Source: a virus (Duplodnaviria; Heunggongvirae; Uroviricota; Caudoviricetes). From it: a stretch of 25,016 bases of DNA. The position numbers were made by a program, and so were the translations under genes. The notes beneath the pieces were generated by a model. It made no database searches, was not told the DNA's origin, and saw only the letters and a program-made list of their open reading frames with translations. Shown here one piece after another: positions 1,675-23,464 of this stretch; the stretch's first letter is position 1; every line of letters starts with the position of its first letter. The stretch spans positions 1-25,016 of IMG/VR virus record IMGVR_UViG_2675903352_000013, one strand, 5' to 3'.

Positions 1675-3993
1675 TTAAATCCGAAGTGATGTAACTCTTC
1701 CGGTCGGTTTGACAATAGGGAATTGCTTAACAATAAAATAACCTCCGGCATCATTCGGGTGATCGTTGCCAGATTTTTTATCAGGCTCACCCTTATCATC
1801 CCAGACCTGTTGCTCCAGAGATTCGGCATATACCGGACAACGCTTCACATTAACTTTATAGCGACGCTCACCATTGGCATTGCAGAACATTGCATTCATT
1901 GAGTTAACGCGATCTTTTACTGGCGGATTCGAACTGTTTACAACAACGTTAAAACCAGCCTGTTTAAGCTGAGCAATATCCGTCGCACTTGCGTTATTTG
2001 ATTTTCTGGAATCCCCGGATGCATCAGGATAAATATAAATTTCCCTTACTTTCCGATAATCATTCCCGTCATATAACCAGAAGCGCTCTTTAATAATACG
2101 GATCATATCTGGTGTATCGTAAGCGTTAATGATTTCAGTTACTGCGCATGGAAGCCCAAAACGTAACACATGAACGACTCCAGCCATTTTTCCGACGTTA
2201 AAATCCATCCCGATATATATCGGCTCACCTGGCTGTTCCTCTTCTTCGCAATTATTCAGTTTTCGGTCAAACTGATGGTAAACAGTACCACTTGTCAGGT
2301 TAGTAAACTGTCCTCGAAGATAGGCTTTAATCAGCTCTGGAGGATATGACTCAAGGAGCGAGGGAATGTAATCTGCTGGCAAATTCTTTTCATTATCGAA
2401 AGTAGATGCCTGCACCAGACCATACAGTGAGGCCAGCTCTGTTTTTTCACGTACGGCTTTAACAAACTGCTCGTAGACAAATTTGAATCCTTCCGGCGTG
2501 GTTGTAACGTCAATACCGTTACGAAGTCCATCAACCTTATAACGCATACGCGCAATTATCTTGCGCCACGCTGTTCTGGCTTTTTCCTTCGGCAAAATGT
2601 CCAGTTCATCCACCAGCGCATTACCAATTTTGAAACCGACGATCGTTTGCGGCTTCTCCATCGTTCTGCAGATAGTGGTTCCACGATACTGACGTCCGTA
2701 ATAAAAATGAACTTCTTTATTTCCCTCGTTAATTTTTACATTTAGCCCCCAGTCGGCAGCAACTTCTTCAACTGTAGGATAAAAAATATCGCGAATTTGT
2801 GGATATGTAGGCGCAAAATATCCCTGATTTATACCCGGATGCTCCCAAATCCCCTTACATATGCCACCACATCCAACCCATGTTTTACCGCTATTGTGAT
2901 GAATCGTCCCATCAGCAGTTACGTAGCAGTTATTATCCAATACCTGGAGGTCATAATATGGCTCGGCCTTCTGCAACAGTGTTACACTCAATATGTTGCA
3001 GGTTTCGATTAAGGAGTTTGGTTTTGACGCCTCTTGACCGTTTAATTTGTGATTTAGCACATCCAGAACGTACCGTTTCAGAAGTTGCTTCTCTGGCAGG
3101 TTGTGACCGCAGTCATGTTTATCGTTGCATATCTCGTTATGGGTTAACGCTGAAACAACACCAGAAGCCTGTCCCTCGAGAAAGTGCGAAGGACAGAATC
3201 CTCGCTCTTGCTGATGGTCACCGTACGTCGGCAGAGATCGCGGCGGAAGTTGGTTGCACAGAAAAGCACGTTCAAAATATTCTCCGAATTCACAACGCCA
3301 ACCGGCTACCCTGTGGCGCCAGAAAGGGTGAGTTGAACCCCAGCTTTCGTGGTGGTCGAATTGTTGATCTGGATGGATATGCCGTTGTTCCAGCGCCTGC
3401 TGACCATCCATATATGCGCAGAACAGGCATGATGTTTGAACATCGTTTGATCGCTGAAAAGAAGCTGGGGCGTTATCTGCTGCCATCAGAAGTTGTTGAC
3501 CATATAGACGGGCTTCATCTGCATAACACCCCAAGTAATCTGCGAGTTTTTGATTCAAACGTGGATCACCTGCGTGCAACGATTTCGGGACGGCGGCCAA
3601 ACTGGTCAGAAGAAGGTTTTGCGAAGATGCAAATACCTTCACCGATTCGTCCAGACTATCCACAGATCGATAGCTACCGTCAGCGCAAAAAACGCGGTGA
3701 TGTCCGCTTGCTACAAATTCTCCTCGCTGCGTCACTACTCGGTATAGATTCGACACACCTTTTGGGTACGCACCACCACTTAGCGAAAGCTCAAATCGAT
3801 TATTCTCATCCGACCAAGATAAAACGCGCATTGGTCGAGTTATTTCCTGAATGGGTAGAATCCCATTCTCTGTAACCACAGGCGTACTTCCCCTCAGGCA
3901 ACCAAAACCAGCAACATAGGCTTTAAATTTATGAGGCATAGAAAGAAATCGCGCCTGAGGCACATTAAGCGTCGGAGAGATCATCTTCATCAC
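1675..3993 (-). CDS. Terminase large subunit (TerL) carrying an in-frame intein within the Walker A P-loop
   Basis: Continuous 772-aa ORF. N-extein ends KAYVAGFG and C-extein begins SGKTWVGCGG, so removing residues 32..367 restores a canonical P-loop AGFGSGKT. Downstream motifs: Walker B-like NALVDELD, and nuclease-domain acidic motifs IYIGMDFNVGK and YPDASGDS. Start overlaps the putative terS 3' end by 29 nt. Confidence 0.8.
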   Translation of the reverse strand: MMKMISPTLNVPQARFLSMPHKFKAYVAGFGCLRGSTPVVTENGILPIQEITRPMRVLSWSDENNRFELSLSGGAYPKGVSNLYRVVTQRGEFVASGHHRVFCADGSYRSVDSLDESVKVFASSQNLLLTSLAAVPKSLHAGDPRLNQKLADYLGCYADEARLYGQQLLMAADNAPASFQRSNDVQTSCLFCAYMDGQQALEQRHIHPDQQFDHHESWGSTHPFWRHRVAGWRCEFGEYFERAFLCNQLPPRSLPTYGDHQQERGFCPSHFLEGQASGVVSALTHNEICNDKHDCGHNLPEKQLLKRYVLDVLNHKLNGQEASKPNSLIETCNILSVTLLQKAEPYYDLQVLDNNCYVTADGTIHHNSGKTWVGCGGICKGIWEHPGINQGYFAPTYPQIRDIFYPTVEEVAADWGLNVKINEGNKEVHFYYGRQYRGTTICRTMEKPQTIVGFKIGNALVDELDILPKEKARTAWRKIIARMRYKVDGLRNGIDVTTTPEGFKFVYEQFVKAVREKTELASLYGLVQASTFDNEKNLPADYIPSLLESYPPELIKAYLRGQFTNLTSGTVYHQFDRKLNNCEEEEQPGEPIYIGMDFNVGKMAGVVHVLRFGLPCAVTEIINAYDTPDMIRIIKERFWLYDGNDYRKVREIYIYPDASGDSRKSNNASATDIAQLKQAGFNVVVNSSNPPVKDRVNSMNAMFCNANGERRYKVNVKRCPVYAESLEQQVWDDKGEPDKKSGNDHPNDAGGYFIVKQFPIVKPTGRVTSLRI
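2893..3900 (-). other. Intein (Hint domain) inserted in the TerL P-loop, about 336 aa
   Basis: Read directly from the minus-strand translation: block A-like CLRGSTPVVTENGILPIQEI starting with Cys (codon 3900..3898); block B-like GEFVASGHHRVF; block F/G-like YYDLQVLDNNCYVTADGTIHHN followed by +1 Ser (codon 2892..2890). No LAGLIDADG or HNH motif in this frame between the blocks. Confidence 0.7.
2958..3875 (+). CDS. HNH endonuclease (HNH_3-like motif) with two N-terminal HTH-like segments, encoded antisense within the TerL intein
   Basis: Plus-strand ORF (track 2880..3875). ATG at 2958 is preceded by GGAGG at 2946..2950 with a 7-nt spacer. Motif DGYAVVPAPADHPYMRRTGMMFEHRLIAEKKLGRYLLPSEVVDHIDGLHLHNTPSNLRVFDSNVDHL matches the classic phage HNH homing-endonuclease pattern. 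Two HTH-like repeats upstream (RTVSEVASLAGCDRSHVYRCISRYGL and RTSAEIAAEVGCTEKHVQNILRIHNA). The C-terminal ~100 aa may be non-functional read-through constrained by the opposite-strand frame. Confidence 0.6.
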   Translation: MARPSATVLHSICCRFRLRSLVLTPLDRLICDLAHPERTVSEVASLAGCDRSHVYRCISRYGLTLKQHQKPVPRESAKDRILALADGHRTSAEIAAEVGCTEKHVQNILRIHNANRLPCGARKGELNPSFRGGRIVDLDGYAVVPAPADHPYMRRTGMMFEHRLIAEKKLGRYLLPSEVVDHIDGLHLHNTPSNLRVFDSNVDHLRATISGRRPNWSEEGFAKMQIPSPIRPDYPQIDSYRQRKKRGDVRLLQILLAASLLGIDSTHLLGTHHHLAKAQIDYSHPTKIKRALVELFPEWVESHSL

Positions 3994-5059
3994 TCCTCAC
4001 TCTGGCATCAACCACATTAATATTGATCGCCACAGGCTGGGGATGTTCATTACCCTCCACCGTTTCGATCTCTTTGCGCAGTTTCTGGTTTTCCATTCTG
4101 CGCCGTTCAATTTCCAGTTCCTGCAGTCGCTTATCTGCACATAATGCCCCGCCAGCGGAAAGCAAACGCAATAATTCACGCCGGGCGGCAGCTTTATTCT
4201 CCAGCAGGATCTCAACGCCGAATTTTCCGAGCTTTGCTCCTGCATACAATTGCCGCGCATTTCCATCAAGCAAAGTGGTATCAGCCATATAAAGCTGACC
4301 TGTACCTTCTCCACCGCATTTCGGACAGTCTGGATTTGGTATGGCGCTATCAACGAAACCGAGGCCACCATATTCAGGTTCTGGTTTACCATCTTTGGAT
4401 GCCTGCGCGGCAGCCCTGTCAAATTCTGCTATATCGCGCCACTGATAGAGGTGATTCTCCCCCCAGCAATAGCGACAGTTAACACGGCGAAATTGCGCAA
4501 GCTGATTGGGATCAGCCTGCACGATGGCCATCAACTGACTCACCAGTAAATCCAGGTCTGCGGTATAGCGTTTCTGGTAATGATTGCGAAAGTAGCTGAT
4601 GGCACGAAAAACCCTGGCATTTCTAAGCATACGACTGGCATTGCTGTTTGCTGTCGCACCTTGCCCCTCGTAACCAGCCAGGCGGTATGCCTCTGTCGGC
4701 TTTTTCCCCTGAGCAACCAACATGGCGAATTTTGCCTGCTGGTCAGAAATACCGAATTCATCGGGGCAAAACGAAATTTCTTCCGTGTCCCCCTCAATCA
4801 GGAGTGCATCGGATACAGCCTTTTTTTTCTGAGATTTTCCGTTTTGCTTTTGCGCAGTCTGCGCAGTTTTTTTTCGCGCACTTTTTTGCGCAGTTTTGCG
4901 CACTTCTGTCTGCGCATTTTTCGGAGGTTTCTTGATGTAACGACGGGCTGTTGCGTAATTCAGTCCCTTTGCTTCACACCACGCCACCGGAGATACACCG
5001 GAGCGGGTGTATTCAGCAATATATTCCTGCTGCAACGCCCCCCAGTCCGGTCTGCTCAT
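3965..5059 (-). CDS. Putative terminase small subunit / DNA-packaging DNA-binding protein
   Basis: 364-aa ORF with ATG at 5059..5057, immediately upstream of and overlapping TerL. N-terminal HTH-like segment (VSPVAWCEAKGLNYATARRYI), Lys/Gln-rich low-complexity linker, CxxC...CxxC pair, C-terminal coiled-coil-like tail. Assignment rests on synteny and architecture. Confidence 0.45.
   Translation of the reverse strand: MSRPDWGALQQEYIAEYTRSGVSPVAWCEAKGLNYATARRYIKKPPKNAQTEVRKTAQKSARKKTAQTAQKQNGKSQKKKAVSDALLIEGDTEEISFCPDEFGISDQQAKFAMLVAQGKKPTEAYRLAGYEGQGATANSNASRMLRNARVFRAISYFRNHYQKRYTADLDLLVSQLMAIVQADPNQLAQFRRVNCRYCWGENHLYQWRDIAEFDRAAAQASKDGKPEPEYGGLGFVDSAIPNPDCPKCGGEGTGQLYMADTTLLDGNARQLYAGAKLGKFGVEILLENKAAARRELLRLLSAGGALCADKRLQELEIERRRMENQKLRKEIETVEGNEHPQPVAININVVDARVRSDEDDLSDA
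4842..4925. repeat. Array of six (T)GCGCA(G/C)-T-rich direct repeats at roughly helical spacing inside the putative terS gene
   Basis: Sequence ttttgcgcagtctgcgcagttttttttcgcgcacttttttgcgcagttttgcgcacttctgtctgcgcattttt; GCGCA cores near 4852, 4861, 4877, 4888, 4898 and 4911. The corresponding protein segment is a low-complexity K/T/A/Q stretch. Confidence 0.6.
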
Positions 5060-5062
5060 CAG

Positions 5063-5314
5063 TTAGTCCTGATTTTTATCCACCCTGAGTAATGCACGCA
5101 GAGCAAAGGCATCCCCTTTTCTGGCAAGCTTAAACAATGCCGCCCGTAGCTCGGCTTCACCTTTCGCTCTGCCCTTACGGATGGACGCATAAAAATTTGT
5201 CATTGTTTCCCGATTTTCTTTCAGTCTGTTCAGATCAACATCCAGAACGTCAGCGATTTGTTGTGCAGTCATCCGGCATGCTGCCAGAGACTCGACTTTC
5301 GAATACGGAATCAT
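5063..5314 (-). CDS. Small HTH-containing protein directly upstream of terS
   Basis: 83-aa ORF, ATG at 5314..5312 preceded by a GGGGGTGA Shine-Dalgarno-like sequence; stop TAA is 3 nt before the terS ATG. HTH-like segment MTAQQIADVLDVDLNRL. Confidence 0.45.
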   Translation of the reverse strand: MIPYSKVESLAACRMTAQQIADVLDVDLNRLKENRETMTNFYASIRKGRAKGEAELRAALFKLARKGDAFALRALLRVDKNQD

Positions 5315-6200
5315 TTATCACCCCCATTGATATGCAGGGTGTCTTCTTCCTGTATTTTTCGTGAAGGATTTTTACTGCAGCGTTGTTCCAGGTGACCTGA
5401 TGGTGAATGCGTTTATGGCTGGCGCCCATCAGTGAGATTTTTACGCACGACGGCGCATACATGACGGAGTAAAAACTTTTAACGTAGGTACCGGAATCCA
5501 GATACAGTTCGGTCATTCCGCCGCTGTTTTTCTGCGTTTGCTTCTGCCCTAACTGGACAGCGCCAATCGTCAAAAACAATTCACCACGACGACCGAGATT
5601 CGTGTATGTATTCACATCCTCGTTAATACGCCCCATAAATGAGAATGGTCGGTCAACAGAACAAATAAAGCTGTTCATTGCTTTGCGTTTCACCCATGCA
5701 GCATGACCACCATTATCACCAAGAAAGTCTCCCCCCTGCGCCATAGCGATGGAAAGCGCAGGAATTGATTCGTAATACGCCAGCATTTCAGAAAGGATCG
5801 CGTCCAGTTTCCTTATCGGAAAATAAGCCTGGTCATAGTTGCGATCTACCCGAAACTGAAACTCGTGATAGTCGTCATCAAGCTGGATGTAGTATTTACA
5901 CCCAACCTTTTTTGCCAGGCCCAAACAGGCATTCCTGGCATAAAAGATTGAACGTCGATCGCCAAAGTTGTCGGCTTCGTCAAAACGACTGGCGATATCG
6001 GCTTTGGAAAACACCAGCACCTGCTCACCAAATTCTGCTACGTACTGATGCCGGGTTTTATCTTCATCATCAACAACGATAAAAATTTTCCCGGTATAGC
6101 CAGCACGACGCAACGTCCGGTAAGTCAGAACTTTGTCCGGTCGCCCGTGAGTCAGAATAAAGGCGCAAAAATCATCACGCATATTACTCCTCCTCGCCAT
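5250..6200 (-). CDS. Hypothetical protein with GT-A-like glycosyltransferase signatures
   Basis: 316-aa ORF, ATG at 6200..6198 with SD GGTGGAG; overlaps the ParB-like gene by 17 nt. N-terminal pattern FILTHGRPDKVL...GKIFIVVDDED and a DxD-like motif YIQLDDDYHEF resemble the GT-A fold. The fold call is tentative. Confidence 0.5.
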   Translation of the reverse strand: MARRSNMRDDFCAFILTHGRPDKVLTYRTLRRAGYTGKIFIVVDDEDKTRHQYVAEFGEQVLVFSKADIASRFDEADNFGDRRSIFYARNACLGLAKKVGCKYYIQLDDDYHEFQFRVDRNYDQAYFPIRKLDAILSEMLAYYESIPALSIAMAQGGDFLGDNGGHAAWVKRKAMNSFICSVDRPFSFMGRINEDVNTYTNLGRRGELFLTIGAVQLGQKQTQKNSGGMTELYLDSGTYVKSFYSVMYAPSCVKISLMGASHKRIHHQVTWNNAAVKILHEKYRKKTPCISMGVINDSVFESRVSGSMPDDCTTNR

Positions 6201-6963
6201 GCATGATCTCCACCATGCGCTGCGTCATCCTGACAAACCCATTTTCAATTGCCTGCTGATAATCAATGATCACCAGAGCCGATTCCTCAAAAAGGCTCTG
6301 AATTTCAGCGGGGGCGTGAGCGTAATAGTCCGCGATTCTGCTGAAATTAAACACCGTGTGACGTTCTGCCGCGCACAGAAGGAATTTCTCAATATCAGGA
6401 TCAAGGGACACCGAACGTGTCCGGCTGATCAGCTCCTGAGTTTTCGTATCGTCGTACAGTTCACAGATATCCGGTTTATCGCCTGACGGCTCATAAACAG
6501 GCGTATCAATTTTCGTCGTATACGGCTCCTCCTCATTTCCTGTACCAGGCAAAATATCCGTCAACAGTTCATCAATTTCTGTCGGGCTGAAGCCTGTCAG
6601 GGAGACATCAAAATCAGCATTAATTAGGTCCGACAGCTCCATCCGTAACAGATCTTCATCCCAGCCAGCATTCATCGGCAGGCGATTATCTGCCAGACGG
6701 TACGCCTTTTTCTGATCATCCGTCAGACCAGACAGAACGATGACCGGAACGAAATCCATTTTGAGCACTTCAGCCGCCATAACGCGACCGTGACCCGCAA
6801 TAACTTCGCCCTTTTCATCAATCAGCACCGGATTAGTCCAGCCAAATTGCTTAATGCTTTCTACCAGTTGCGTCACCTGCTCAGGGCTGTGTGTCCTGGC
6901 ATTGTGTGCATACAGAGACAGCTCTTGTAACGGGCGATAGACGATCTTCAATTTCTCGCTCAT
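6184..6963 (-). CDS. ParB-like nuclease domain protein
   Basis: 259-aa ORF, ATG at 6963..6961 with SD GAGG. N-terminal ParB/Srx-like domain (YRPLQELSLYAHNARTH, LVESIKQFGWTNPVLID, IAGHGRVMAAEVL, KKAYRLADNRL); acidic C-terminal half. Confidence 0.7.
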   Translation of the reverse strand: MSEKLKIVYRPLQELSLYAHNARTHSPEQVTQLVESIKQFGWTNPVLIDEKGEVIAGHGRVMAAEVLKMDFVPVIVLSGLTDDQKKAYRLADNRLPMNAGWDEDLLRMELSDLINADFDVSLTGFSPTEIDELLTDILPGTGNEEEPYTTKIDTPVYEPSGDKPDICELYDDTKTQELISRTRSVSLDPDIEKFLLCAAERHTVFNFSRIADYYAHAPAEIQSLFEESALVIIDYQQAIENGFVRMTQRMVEIMHGEEE

Positions 6964-18194: not shown

Positions 18195-18364
18195 TGGATA
18201 AGAAAATAAAATGTGCTTACCACCTTTGCAAAAAAGACGTTGAAGAAAGCAAAACTATTGAAAGAATGCTTCATTTCATGCACGGAACTTTATCAAAAGA
18301 CGAACCGAGAAAATATTGCAGTGAAACTTGTGCCGAAAAAGACCAGATGGCACACGAACTTTAA
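18194..18364 (+). CDS. ydaE: YdaE-like zinc-binding small protein
   Basis: 56-aa ORF not in the track: [56 protein letters not shown]; its ATG overlaps the racC-like stop (TGATG). Confidence 0.65.
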   Translation: MDKKIKCAYHLCKKDVEESKTIERMLHFMHGTLSKDEPRKYCSETCAEKDQMAHEL

Positions 18365-18438
18365 TTAACTGACTATTCGAAACTGAATTTATGCCAGCAA
18401 TGGCAGGGATTCGCTCAACCTTAATTAAGGAGAAAAAC

Positions 18439-18714
18439 ATGATTACCAATTATGAAGCCACTGTTGTAACTACTGATGACATTGTTCACGAGGTCAATCT
18501 GGACGGAAAGCGTATTGGCTACGTGATTAAAACAGAAAATAAAGAAACCCCATTCACTGTGGTTGATATCGACGGCCCATCAGGCAACGTTAAAACACTT
18601 CATGAAGGCGTCAAAAAAATGTGCCTGGTGCACATTGGAAATAATCTGCCAGCAGAAAAAAAAGCTGAGTTTCTGGCAACTCTGATTGCAATGAAATTAA
18701 AAGGTGAAATTTAA
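18439..18714 (+). CDS. kilR: KilR-like cell-division (FtsZ) inhibitor
   Basis: ATG at 18439 preceded by AGGAG at a 7-nt spacer; MITNYEATVVTTDDIVHEVNLDGKRIGYVIKTENKETPFTVVDIDGPSGNVKTL... matches Rac KilR as recalled. An upstream in-frame ATG at 18391 lacks an RBS. Confidence 0.75.
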   Translation: MITNYEATVVTTDDIVHEVNLDGKRIGYVIKTENKETPFTVVDIDGPSGNVKTLHEGVKKMCLVHIGNNLPAEKKAEFLATLIAMKLKGEI

Positions 18715-18814
18715 AAAAAAGAAAGCCTGCACAGTGTACAGGCCTGAGTGAAAAACCTGGGACATTTATTCATCACTCGCACTAAATTTTAATCTGAGTT
18801 GAGGTTAAAAAACA

Positions 18815-21800
18815 ATGAGCACTGACAAACAAAATTTTGCGTTACATTGCGACGCGAAAAATGAGGGCGCAAGAAAACGCCTCGGCATCAAAGGCGGCTT
18901 CTTCTGGACAGAGGCAAAAAAACTTTCTGTTGCGGTTTCACGCTGCATTGCTGCAATGGACGATGCAGGCTACGACGAAGATGATTTTAAAAAACCTGTT
19001 CGCGTAAATTTGCCCGTTGTTGATGACCTTCCGCCAGAAGGCGTATTTGATACGGAATTCTGCAACCGTTACGAAAAAGGCGGTGAAGATGGCATTACAA
19101 TGGTATTTATCGCGCCATCACACTCTGTTCAGGACAAACCAGCCAGCACTGACAACACCAACGTCAACGGCGAAGATATGACTGAGATTGAGGAGAATAT
19201 GCTACTCCCGATTTCAGGTCAGATTCTGCCTGTTCGCTGGCTGGCACAGCACAGCAGCGAAAAACCGGTAACGCACGTTTCACGGGAAGAACTGCGCGCA
19301 TTACATAACGCACAGGATGAAAAACTTCCCGCAGTTACAGCGCTGGCCATCTCAAATAAAGCAGCGCAACTCGAACCGCTGGAGATTCGCGATCTCCACA
19401 AACTGGTTCGTGACACTGACAAAGTTTTCCCTAATCCTGGTAATTCAGATCTGGGACTGATGACTGCTTTTTTCGAAGCATACCTGGGCACCGACTACAC
19501 CGATCGAGGTCTGCTGACAAAAGAGTGGATGAAAGGGAATCGTGTTTCACGCATCACCCGCACGCCCTCCGGTGCTAATGCTGGCGGCGGGAACAAAACT
19601 GATCGCGGTGAAGATTTCGTCCACGATCAGGCTTCGCTGGCACGCGATGTTGCGACTGGCATTCTGGCCCGTTCAATGGATGTTGATATTTATAACCTTC
19701 ATCCGGCACACGCTAAACGTATTGATGAAATCATCGCAGAGAATAAGCCGCCCTTTTCTGTTTTCCGTGACATATTCACTGCTATGCCTGGGGGATTGGA
19801 TTATTCCCGCGCCATCGTGGTTGCATCCGTGAAAGAAGCACCTATCGGTATTGAGGTTATTCACGCGCACGTCACTGAATATCTGAACAAGGTGCTGATT
19901 GAAACCAATCACGCCAATCCTGATCAGGAAATCGTGGATATTACTTGCGGCCGTTCCTCAGCCCCAATGCCACAGCGTGATACAGAAGAAGGAAAACAAG
20001 GTGAAGAAAAACCACAACCATCTGGCGCAATGGCAAATGAACAGGCAACGCCTGAAACAGTGGAACCGGATACAACTGAACATCATCAGAACACGCAGTC
20101 GATGGATGCTCAGCCACAGGTAAATTCTGTTGATGCGAAATATCAGGAACTGAGGGCAGAACTCCATGAAGCCCGGAAAAACATTCCGCCCCAAAATCCT
20201 GTCGATGCAGACAAATTACTGGCTGCCTATCGCGGAGAATTTGTTGAAGGGATTAGCGACCCGAATGATCCGAAATGGGTTAAGGGGATCCAGACTCGCG
20301 ATTCTGTGTACCAGCATCAGCCAGAAACGGAACAGAACGACCAGAAAGCTGAACAGAACAGCCCAAATACGCAACAAAACGAGCCAGAAACGAAACAGTC
20401 TGAGCCAGTAGTGCAACAACAGGAAACGGAGAAAGTTTGCACCGCCTGCGGTCAGGCTGGAGGAAATAGCTGCCCTGACTGTGGTGCAGTGATGGGAGAC
20501 GCAACGTATCAGGAAACCTTTAATGAAGAAAATATGGATGAATCTCAGGAAAAAGATTCGGAGAAAATGGAAGACGATAAACATCCGCACAAGGAAAACA
20601 CTGGCAACCATCCGCATCACAATTGCAGTGATGAAACTGGTGAAGCGTCAGCTCCTGTAGCAACTGAAATCATGTGGCCGTCATATTTCGAGCCTGGTCG
20701 CTATGAAAACCTCCCGAACGAGGTTTATCACGCCGCCAACGGAATAAGCAGCACGATGCTGAAGGATGCCCGTATCAGTTTGATGTATTACCACGGGCGG
20801 CACATTGCCGGAACTATTCCGTGTGAAGAAAGTGATGCATTGCTACGTGGGCGGATCATTCACAGCTATGTTCTGGAAACGGATAAATTCTCTGATGAAT
20901 ATGCCATTCCGGTACCGGTTCCTGAAGATGTGGTTGCCACTTCTCAAGAACTGATCGCCATTATTAAAAAACACAATGCCAGTTTGCCAGCACTGATGAC
21001 GCCAGAGCAGATAAAAGAGTGGATCGAAAACTACAACAGCACTCTTATTCAGCCACTGTCGGTAAGTGCTGGAGCCGAAGAAACAGGCATTCTTTACGGC
21101 TCGCTCCCGGAGGAATTCCGGCGTATTCCAGAAGGAGAAAAACACACTGCATCAGCAATGAAAGCCTGTATTAAAGAATACAACGCAAGCCTCCCCTCTC
21201 TACTGAAAACCAGTGGAACACGGGAGCAACTTCTGGAGCAAATTGAAACTGTAGATCCAGAACTGGCAAAAAAGAACGGGCTAAATCTTTGCCTTACAAC
21301 ATCAGTGGTACAAAAGAGCAATTAACCGAAATCGCCCGGAAAATTCGCCCGGAACTGGTAACACTGGAGGACTGGCAAAAACGCCAGCAAGAAGAAAATG
21401 CAGGAAAAACGTTTATCAGTCCAGATATGTATGAACAGGCAAAAAATATTCACGCGGCACTGCAAAACAATACTGACGCGGCAAGACTACTCAACCACCC
21501 GGATCGCAAATCTGAAATCAGCTATTTCGGGTTTGATGAAGAAACCGGGCTGGAAATCAGGGTCCGCCCTGATATCGAAATCCGACTGCCATACGAAAGC
21601 ATCTGCGCCGACGTGAAATCAGTAAGCTTCGGTTATGTGCGGCAAGAACGACTAAAAGATCGCTTACACCGTGAAATTATTGAACGTGATTATCACCTGA
21701 GCGCCGCAATGTACTGCGATGTGGCAAACCTGGATAAATTTTTCTGGGTCTTCGTCAATAAGGATGCTGGCTATCACTGGGTGGCAGTTGTGGAAGCTTC

Positions 21801-21960
21801 GCAGGAACTCCTTGAACTTGGTCGCCAGGAGTATCGCCGGACGCTACGCCAGATAAACGAAGCTCTGGAGACAAACAACTGGCCAGCACCAATTACCGAA
21901 AGTTATACCGACGAATTAAACGACTTTGATCTTCGTCGTCTTGAAGCACTGAGCATCTGA
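18815..21960 (+). pseudogene. recE: RecE (exonuclease VIII) homologue, apparently split by a frameshift into 836-aa and 223-aa ORFs
   Basis: N-terminal and central regions strongly resemble Rac RecE as recalled. The nuclease domain begins in ORF1 ([15 protein letters not shown]...[12 protein letters not shown]) and continues in ORF2 (RPDIEIRLPYE...DVKSV), which has no ATG (TTG at 21289); the frames overlap at 21247..21325. Confidence 0.7.
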
Positions 21961-21971
21961 GGAAGGACACA

Positions 21972-23024
21972 ATGAACGAATTAACTCAACAAGAAAATAT
22001 TAACTCTAACGTTGCGGTTTTCAGCCCTCAGTCCCTGGCTGCAATTCAGACATTTTCTCAGGTAATGGCTTCCGGCATGGCTACTGTACCGGAACACCTC
22101 CGGGGAAATCCATCAGACTGTATGGCCATCACCATGCAGGCGATGCAGTGGCAAATGAACCCTTACGCAGTAGCTCAGAAAACTTTCGTTGTGAATGGTG
22201 TGCTCGGATATGAAGCGCAACTGGTTAATGCCGTAATCAGTACCCGTGGACCGCTAACCGGGCGTATTGAATATGACTGGTTCGGACCGTGGGAAAAAAT
22301 TATCGGGAAATTTGAAATCAGGAAGAACGATAAAGGGAAAGAATATCGCGTACCTGGATGGAAGCTGGCCGATGAAAACGGGATCGGAGTTCGTGTCCAG
22401 GCAACGCTACGTGGAGAGAGCAAACCACGCGTACTTGAGTTACTTCTGGCGCAGGCCAGAACACGTAACTCAACGTTATGGGCCGATGATCCTCGCCAGC
22501 AACTTGCCTATCTGGCACTAAAACGCTGGGCACGCCTTTATTGCCCTGAAGTGATTCTTGGAGTGTACACCCGGGACGAACTGGACGAACCACAGGAAAA
22601 AATCATTAATCCGGTTCAGGAACATAAAAACACATCCGCCTGCCGTGCGGAACGTGAAACAACAATTATTGAGCAGGATGCCGGGGAAAACTGGATCGAT
22701 GCTTTCCGTGAACGTATTGAGCAAGCACAAAGCACCGAAGAAACAACGGCACTTCGCCAGGAAGTAGAAGCTCATAAAAATACACTTGGTGCTCTCTACA
22801 CAGAACTTAAAGGAAAAGTGGTTCAGCGTCATCACCGTCTTAATGCTATTGCCCGTATTGAGAAGATGATAAATGACCTGCCTTCATCAGGTGATCCAGA
22901 AGCAGAACAAAAATTTACGGCTCTGGAAAACACGCTGAATGCTGTACGACCACATTTAGGAGAATTATATGAGGCGTATAAAACGACACTGACAGACCTG
23001 AAACCAGAATATATCGGCTCCTGA
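21972..23024 (+). CDS. RecT/Bet (Redbeta)-family single-strand annealing protein
   Basis: 350-aa ORF immediately downstream of recE, RBS GGAAGGA. Segment TLWADDPRQQLAYLALKRWARLYCPEVILGVYTRDE parallels the conserved GPW...ARLAFGFAGIYDKDE region of lambda Bet. Confidence 0.7.
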   Translation: MNELTQQENINSNVAVFSPQSLAAIQTFSQVMASGMATVPEHLRGNPSDCMAITMQAMQWQMNPYAVAQKTFVVNGVLGYEAQLVNAVISTRGPLTGRIEYDWFGPWEKIIGKFEIRKNDKGKEYRVPGWKLADENGIGVRVQATLRGESKPRVLELLLAQARTRNSTLWADDPRQQLAYLALKRWARLYCPEVILGVYTRDELDEPQEKIINPVQEHKNTSACRAERETTIIEQDAGENWIDAFRERIEQAQSTEETTALRQEVEAHKNTLGALYTELKGKVVQRHHRLNAIARIEKMINDLPSSGDPEAEQKFTALENTLNAVRPHLGELYEAYKTTLTDLKPEYIGS

Positions 23025-23088
23025 TATTTACCATGGCGGTGTAGCCTCGCCGCCATCGCAAAATTATATATTTATGAGAGAAAAGACA

Positions 23089-23283
23089 ATGCGATATGAA
23101 AAAGTTAAGCCATGTCCGTTTTGTGGTTGTCCATCTGTAACAGTGAAAGCCATTTCAGGGTATTACCGGGCAAAATGCAACGGCTGCGAATCCCGAACTG
23201 GCTATGGTGGAAGTGAGAAAGAAGCCCTCGAAAGATGGAATAAACGAACCGCTGAAAATATTAATGGAGGCATCTATGTATAA
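23089..23283 (+). CDS. ralR: Restriction alleviation protein RalR (Lar)
   Basis: 64-aa product from the second ATG: MRYEKVKPCPFCGCPSVTVKAISGYYRAKCNGCESRTGYGGSEKEALERWNKRT..., matching Rac Lar as recalled. Confidence 0.8.
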   Translation: MRYEKVKPCPFCGCPSVTVKAISGYYRAKCNGCESRTGYGGSEKEALERWNKRTAENINGGIYV

Positions 23284-23464
23284 AATTACCGCCACAATTG
23301 AAAAGGAAGGTGGTACTCCTACTAACTGGACAAGATATTCAAAATCTAAACTAACGAAATCAGAATGCGAAAAAATGCTCTCAGGGAAAAAAGAAGCAGG
23401 CGTTTCCAGAGAGCAAAAAGTAAAACTGATGAATTTTAATTGCGAGAAACTTCAGTCCTGGTAA
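23276..23464 (+). CDS. ydaC: YdaC-like small protein
   Basis: ATG at 23276 preceded by GGAGG at a 6-nt spacer; overlaps the ralR stop; product MYKITATIEKEGGTPTNWTRYSKSKLTKSECEKMLSGKKEAG... Confidence 0.6.
   Translation: MYKITATIEKEGGTPTNWTRYSKSKLTKSECEKMLSGKKEAGVSREQKVKLMNFNCEKLQSW

Follow-up and report, generated by a model that had tools for sequence, protein, structure and literature searches.

A long-form recE in a Rac-type prophage of Escherichia albertii, probably split by a one-base deletion in a run of A

Is a recombination exonuclease gene that occupies two overlapping reading frames a broken gene, a pair of cooperating genes, a recoded gene or an error in the sequence? The question is raised by a stretch of 25,016 nucleotides (nt), here called the window, which makes up positions 1 to 25,016 of the IMG/VR virus record IMGVR_UViG_2675903352_000013 (Duplodnaviria; Heunggongvirae; Uroviricota; Caudoviricetes). 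Two of its open reading frames, ORF1 and ORF2, together resemble recE, the gene of exodeoxyribonuclease VIII. Probably they are the long-form recE of a Rac-type prophage from which one A has been lost, and with it all or most of the nuclease activity. The gene family and the genomic context are known already, and the lesion is an ordinary homopolymer frameshift.

An earlier interpretation made from the letters and their ORF translations (the sequence-only reading) had taken the two ORFs for one long recE split by a frameshift, about 1048 codons in all and longer than the recE of Escherichia coli K-12, with both frames open over 21247–21325, and had proposed that alignment to intact RecE homologues would place the indel. 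These points are borne out. The joined, frame-corrected product has 1048 amino acids (aa), compared with 866 aa in K-12 RecE, and matches the NCBIfam exodeoxyribonuclease VIII equivalog NF007259 with 1427.9 bits over profile positions 1–874 of 877, the curated cut-off being 1269 bits. Taken alone, both parts fall below that cut-off: ORF1 reaches 1209.6 bits (positions 1–702) and ORF2 210.5 bits (positions 701–874). Since the corrected protein fits the profile from end to end, with the halves adjoining, ORF1 and ORF2 are one recE gene. Besides Exonuc_VIII (Table 1), the joined protein has a match to Pfam DUF3799, a PD-(D/E)XK domain near the C-terminus that is encoded in the 3′ part. The C-terminal PD-(D/E)XK domain with the RecE fold is present, as a distant match to the K-12 nuclease domain 3H4R (phmmer E 2.3e-8). 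An uninterrupted frame for the whole enzyme is absent from this allele, owing to a one-base deletion at 21268–21273, and the window recE, as its sequence stands, is a disrupted allele of the RecE family that does not encode a working enzyme. ORF1 encodes native residues 1–820, followed by an out-of-frame tail of 16 aa and TAA. The frame of ORF2 is open from 21247, directly after a TGA at 21244–21246, which together with the end of ORF1 accounts for the overlap.

The frame shifts after Lys820, where a run of seven A (A7) has been shortened by one base to six (A6). The window differs from two intact E. coli alleles by three in-frame indels of 3 nt and by a sole frame-breaking difference, GGC-AAAAAA-GAAC at 21268–21273 in place of A7. 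Four intact E. albertii alleles (L079–L082) were found via the 1048-aa protein P0123, and one of them comes from the sequencing study of the window strain. They differ from the window at 3 of 3147 positions: two bases are substituted, and the third difference is the A that the window lacks. The frame-corrected protein is identical to P0123 (exodeoxyribonuclease VIII, e.g. EFC0135534.1) at 1047 of 1048 residues, and P0123 is present on 55 contigs. Because intact alleles so nearly identical differ by three positions, and because the corrected protein fits NF007259, the comparison indicates one recE gene that was broken very recently. The window thus holds an ordinary recE that was lately knocked out or strongly knocked down, not a new kind of gene.

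Table 1. Coordinates of recE, its parts and its partner in the window (positions in nt unless residues are given).
Feature	Position	Strand	Remarks
ORF1, 5′ part of recE	18815..21325	+	836 aa
ORF2 as listed	21289..21960	+	223 aa; start TTG 21289
3′ part of recE, −1 frame	21274..21960	+	residues 821–1048 plus stop
Both frames open (frame overlap)	21247..21325	+	
A6 homopolymer, deletion site	21268..21273	+	A7 in intact alleles (alignments)
A_AAA_AAG heptamer (GC-A-AAA-AAG)	21268..21274	+	ORF1 frame GCA AAA AAG; direct reading, translation
Pfam Exonuc_VIII (PF06630)	residues 55–189		E 1.1e-26; joined protein
21-nt tandem repeat, 3.8 copies	20321..20398	+	Gln/Glu-rich stretch, 14 aa longer than that of K-12
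CxxC-x8-CxxC motif	20438..20485	+	linker; K-12 RecE counterpart CNACGQTGGDNCPDCG
PD-(D/E)XK nuclease domain, RecE fold	20690..21960	+	residues 626–1048
His683	20861..20863	+	aligns with K-12 RecE His652; encoded in ORF1
Helical insertion, ~160 aa	20921..21402	+	not in K-12 RecE; five repeated helix units; holds the frameshift
Repeat unit 4	21206..21271	+	22 aa; A run at the end of the unit
Repeat unit 5	21298..21366	+	23 aa; 31 codons past unit 4 in intact alleles
PD...DxK motif	21571..21618	+	D920 (21571–21573), D933-V-K935 (21610–21618); all in ORF2
recT partner	21972..23024	+	350 aa; Pfam RecT E 2.8e-43

Homologues are continuous where the window is broken. The sequence-only reading had named, as an observation that would speak against it, homologues consistently present as two genes at this point; two A6 alleles apart, single ORFs were found throughout. 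The frame runs across the break point in roughly 80 DNA loci from E. coli and E. albertii, and likewise in Salmonella and Citrobacter proteins of 52–70% identity. Intact E. coli homologues are annotated recE, as a single coding sequence (CDS) of 1048–1049 aa. A pattern scan that accepted A6 or A7 returned 71 IMG/VR contigs, 70 of them with A7; where a contig reaches both ends of the gene, most have about 790–822 open codons upstream of the site and 234–235 downstream. A7 was also read in the E. albertii loci (4/4) and in the complete E. coli genomes, of which 191 carry the region (25/25 among the matches listed). A metagenome scan gave nine matches, and all five true homologues among them are A7 and intact; four apparent A6 matches (L083, L084, L088 and L090) have no similarity to recE and were discarded as chance matches to a 21-mer. 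A scan of species-representative genomes for the A6/A7 site pattern gave no match, a result that is uninformative on allele frequency. Distant homologues have neither an A run nor Lys-Lys at the site (EFAEQERAKF, DLVAQEAQKP).

The one IMG/VR contig with A6, L034, is split in the same way as the window, into 835 and 223 aa. In the 1.4 kb that surround the site, its recE is only 93% identical to that of the window, and the A was therefore lost independently in L034. Its ORF2 is the 223-aa protein P0142, recorded as EHX28092.1 (E. coli DEC12B) and STM23634.1, and over 121 nt an extra A is the sole difference of four complete genomes from L034, one of these being O111:H2 strain 12A. Insertion sequences break long-form recE as well: several O145 genomes (E. 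coli loci H26–H30) have an IS3-family element in it, and strain F344 (L077, 22478–27699) has the IS21-like element ISEc62. Independent inactivation of long-form prophage recE is common.

RecE has been described as a PD-DXK nuclease (PMC11611040). D920, D933 and K935, the catalytic PD...DxK residues of the joined protein, align with D748, D759 and K761 of K-12 RecE. The roles of K-12 residues beyond the PD-DXK motif are taken to be those reported in the RecE structure paper. The nuclease domain was said in the sequence-only reading to be divided between the frames, and it is, the aligned His lying before the break and the PD...DxK residues after it. The break falls within an insertion whose predicted helices have predicted local distance difference test (pLDDT) values of about 80–90 in an AlphaFold2 (AF2) model of an intact homologue, 96% identical, in which the N-terminal 108 and C-terminal 29 residues are of low confidence. 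ORF1 retains the larger part of the insertion, which is conserved in Salmonella and Citrobacter homologues.

A diverged tandem repeat had been noticed around the frame overlap, and the frameshift had been placed inside this duplication. The repeat itself is well supported: units 4 and 5 align with a BLOSUM62 local score of 47–49, compared with 17–21 ± 4 for shuffled sequences (0 of 1000–2000 reach the native score), and units 1 and 3 score 49, with shuffles at 15.9 ± 3.6. At the DNA level, two repeat pairs are spaced at 92 nt in the window and at 93 nt (31 codons) in intact alleles. The location also stands, as the A run ends unit 4 and the break thus falls between units 4 and 5, two copies of a 31-aa repeat. 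The duplication as the cause of the shift was rejected, the repeat being in frame in all intact homologues, those of Salmonella (about 52% identity) included; because it is conserved in intact homologues, the repeat predates the frameshift. A 14-mer, GAACTGGCAAAAAA, occurs three times within 190 nt at 86–100% identity (21260–21273, 21369–21382 and 21433–21446), and its copies, which encode ELAKK, DWQKR and EQAKN, bring more A-rich, slippage-prone runs close to the deletion site. This recurrence probably reflects the repeated helix motifs. A reading of the helix repeats as SAP/HeH DNA-binding elements was tried; it yielded a sub-threshold match to SAP_new25 (Pfam E 0.039), on which no claim is made.

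The intact protein would act as a 5′–3′ exonuclease on double-stranded DNA that makes 3′ tails for annealing by RecT. Because the candidate starts of ORF2 (TTG at 21289, ATG at 21427) are not preceded by a Shine-Dalgarno sequence, and because no promoter-like site was found within 18300–23400, the main translation product in the strain would be an 836-aa protein that lacks the catalytic core and has no nuclease activity. The RecET pathway of the prophage would then be lost or strongly reduced. Some function might return by two routes. Occasional −1 slippage on A_AAA_AAG would give the exact wild-type RecE, probably under a few percent without a stimulator, and reversion from A6 to A7 by replication slippage would restore the gene. 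The sequence-only reading had called the exonuclease probably inactive; the loss of function is upheld, and the wording is softened to inactive or strongly reduced in view of the in-frame rescue at A_AAA_AAG.

That rescue can be read directly from the sequence. A −1 slip of both tRNAs at the heptamer brings GAA CGG GCT next and continues as the exact sequence of the intact protein to 21960. Few −1 motifs in E. coli are as efficient as A_AAA_AAG; without stimulators, −1 rates for such heptamers are about 0.1–0.5%, and the reported values are only about 2–10 times a background of 0.055% (PMC4066793). For C-AAA-AAA, a −1 shift of 25–60% was found under strong overexpression (PMC1851650). The source of the frameshift-motif rates, Sharma et al. 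2014, makes no mention of recE (PMC4066793). Intact A7 alleles read A_AAA_AAA in frame, which is also −1 slippery (e.g. L001 at about 5425–5450; window 21266–21280). A −1 slip in these alleles would lead into AGA ACG TGC TAA, and the resulting protein, about 823 aa long, would lack the catalytic core.

The deletion has to be weighed against a consensus error, in which the consensus would have dropped one A, the true run in the strain being A7 and its recE intact at 1048 aa. The ORF1 protein is on record only on BBVQ01000008.1 of GCA_001514805.1, and the BBVQ accession range belongs to E. albertii NIAH_Bird_8 (PMC5797873), one of 26 drafts assembled with Platanus from Illumina MiSeq reads (PMC4700944). 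An independent Logan assembly of the public run DRR017191 contains a 4652-nt contig, reported for three samples, whose identity to the window is 100%, with A6 at the site. In strain BBVJ, which shares study and pipeline with NIAH_Bird_8, the run is A7. Consensus errors at runs of 6–7 bases are rare in Illumina data. Since the Logan assembly has A6, the sister strain has A7 and the chemistry is Illumina, a real deletion is probably the case, at several times the likelihood of an artefact. The 223-aa protein of the ORF2 type, recorded under two accessions from different E. coli records, likewise speaks against an artefact. Several points nevertheless weigh against a genuine, disabling deletion. 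The lesion changes the length of a homopolymer by a single base, and the A6 allele of the window, with its 836-aa product, stands on a single NCBI contig. The Logan assembly may share reads with the deposited draft, so that a systematic homopolymer miscall is possible. Elsewhere the gene is all but identical to intact alleles and has no further decay, which suits a very recent mutation and an error alike. The other A6 case, L034, is itself set apart from complete genomes, over the stretch compared, by that single A. The term strongly reduced could also overstate the effect, given a published −1 range that extends to 25–60%. On balance, the sequencing error that the sequence-only reading had allowed for is rather unlikely; it has lost ground to the agreement of the Logan assembly without disappearing.

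If the deletion is real, it might still serve a function. Translation of both ORFs, with non-covalent reassembly of the halves into an active nuclease, would be helped by a break that lies in the insertion at the protein surface, at a predicted helix end followed by a loop, rather than in the conserved core, and by halves that are otherwise undamaged. It is scarcely credible for an ORF2 whose possible starts, a TTG and a distant ATG, come without a Shine-Dalgarno sequence or promoter-like site, and for an ORF1 with a 16-aa foreign tail; two-gene homologues at the break point were not found beyond the two A6 alleles. Programmed recoding of the dnaX or IS3 type, in which −1 frameshifting or transcriptional slippage would set a selected ratio of truncated to full-length RecE, is suggested by a perfect zero-frame A_AAA_AAG, an efficient motif in E. 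coli (PMC4066793), by a −1 frame that stays open to the native stop and yields the wild-type product, and by the same deletion in the diverged allele of L034. The elements expected around such a site are missing. The downstream segment 21275–21360 folds at −15.7 kcal/mol, compared with −16.3 ± 3.2 for shuffled sequences (z = 0.20; of 200 shuffles, 115 reach this energy or a lower one), and so offers no stimulatory structure. Upstream, where a Shine-Dalgarno-like stimulator was sought 6–17 nt before the heptamer, the sequence is gaaactgtagatccagaactggc, and the 23 nt before the heptamer, read directly, contain no GGAG, GAGG or AGGA. A conserved two-frame arrangement is not seen among the roughly 80 homologous loci, which have A7 and mostly a single ORF; distant homologues lack the A run altogether, and a single mutation separates A6 from the intact allele that is common. 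Because structure, Shine-Dalgarno-like element and conservation are all absent, −1 slippage at this heptamer is possible as an accidental leak rather than as programmed recoding, which is highly improbable. It is very unlikely, too, that the A7 run acts as a reversible switch between on and low, with the A6 heptamer giving a low set level of RecE and a regained A restoring the full one. In that case A6 would keep RecE, a prophage nuclease that may be harmful, at a low dose that is tolerated or selected for, and would not be simple decay. A recent, ordinary disruption of recE is thus the reading retained here.

The long form of the gene has its own history. Its extra length over K-12 RecE consists of the helical insertion of about 160 aa and the 14-aa expansion of the Gln/Glu repeat. 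The Gln/Glu-rich low-complexity stretch and the CxxC...CxxC pair that the sequence-only reading had pointed out in the linker were both found, the latter shared with K-12 RecE, and the RecT-like partner was rightly described as intact. For the CxxC...CxxC motif, a zinc ribbon was considered; the Pfam DZR match is weak and sub-threshold (E 0.065), and metal binding is not established. The recT gene begins 11 nt past the recE stop and encodes 350 aa in intact loci too. The window is 82% identical to K-12 Rac DNA over 19153–20659; homology ends at 20659 and is back at 23054. Relative to K-12 Rac, the block 20660..23053, with the nuclease domain and the entire recT, is replaced between homologous flanks, and BLASTP of the window RecT (350 aa) against K-12 RecT (269 aa) gave no significant match. 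This comparison suggests a joint exchange of the exonuclease domain and its annealing partner. The length of the gene is no oddity: a K-12-like N-terminal region of about 610 aa is joined to the common Gifsy-1-type nuclease module with the helical insertion, swapped in with its own recT. E. albertii also has proteins of 663–671 aa named exodeoxyribonuclease VIII (P0125, P0133 and P0134), about 87–90% identical over the shared part, that end in a third, unrelated C-terminus (...PGIAMMIANRLENFGVADDEHMPDF). These proteins suggest further module swapping at this junction.

As a whole, the window has about 92% identity to E. coli relatives and is a prophage of the Rac type, with the gene order sieB, kilR, ydaE, recE, recT, ralR/lar, DUF1187, xis and int. 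The antitoxin small RNA RalA (Rfam RF02694, 209 bits) lies at 23282–23460 on the minus strand, just past the ORF at 23074..23283 (plus strand; Pfam Lar_restr_allev; ralR in E. coli relatives), to which it is antisense, an arrangement that resembles K-12 Rac. At the other end of the window, a 331-aa ORF at 2880..3875 (plus strand) matches HTH_29, HTH_28, HTH_23 and the HNH_3 endonuclease family. It lies antisense between terS (3965..5059, minus strand) and terL (within 1675..3993, minus strand). Because the terminase genes directly overlap in the E. coli relative L077, this ORF looks like a free-standing homing endonuclease of the HNH type that came in as an insertion about 1 kb long. The 772-aa minus-strand terL ORF is over-extended, as its TerL domains begin at residue 368. 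Two adjoining minus-strand ORFs, 5250..6200 and 6184..6963, encode a TET-associated glycosyltransferase (PF20691, E 1.7e-35) and, beside it, a protein whose match to the ParB N-terminal domain has 24.4 bits, under the cut-off of 26.3. The pair may point to a prophage module for DNA modification.

The significance of the lesion hardly extends beyond correct annotation: one frameshifted recE, and neither two genes nor a novel architecture, is the proper reading of the two CDSs that RefSeq names RecE family exodeoxyribonuclease (WP_439709387.1) and PD-(D/E)XK nuclease-like domain-containing protein (WP_439709388.1). The homopolymer indel has nonetheless created a −1 slippery heptamer, the strongest of those in bacteria, in the very frame that rescues the protein, and such pseudogenes may leak; the window recE is an easy natural test case. 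The junction at 20659/20660 is also useful, as a place where the exonuclease domain and its annealing partner appear to travel together. Long-form RecE/RecT pairs are candidate recombineering tools, for which an intact A7 allele is to be preferred.

Among known systems, dnaX-type frameshift sites have the identical A_AAA_AAG heptamer in the zero frame and a −1 frame open downstream; the window site differs in lacking the Shine-Dalgarno-like element and the hairpin, and it arose by deletion and is unconserved. The K-12 Rac prophage offers the same setting beside recT, ralR/RalA, xis and int, and its 866-aa RecE (nuclease domain, PDB 3H4R) has the N-terminal 600–610 or so residues, the CxxC...CxxC pair, the His and the PD...DxK motif in common with the window protein, whereas K-12 recE is not frameshifted and is without the insertion of about 160 aa. 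Gifsy-1 RecE of Salmonella and the exodeoxyribonucleases of Salmonella and Citrobacter have the same type of nuclease domain, repeated helical insertion included, at 52–70% identity over 98% of that domain; their N-terminal regions are different, and they carry no A run or Lys-Lys and no frameshift. The closest counterparts are the intact alleles of the P0123 type, which have the same neighbours (kilR, ydaE, recT, ralR/lar and DUF1187) and differ in reading A7 as one ORF where the window reads A6 as two.

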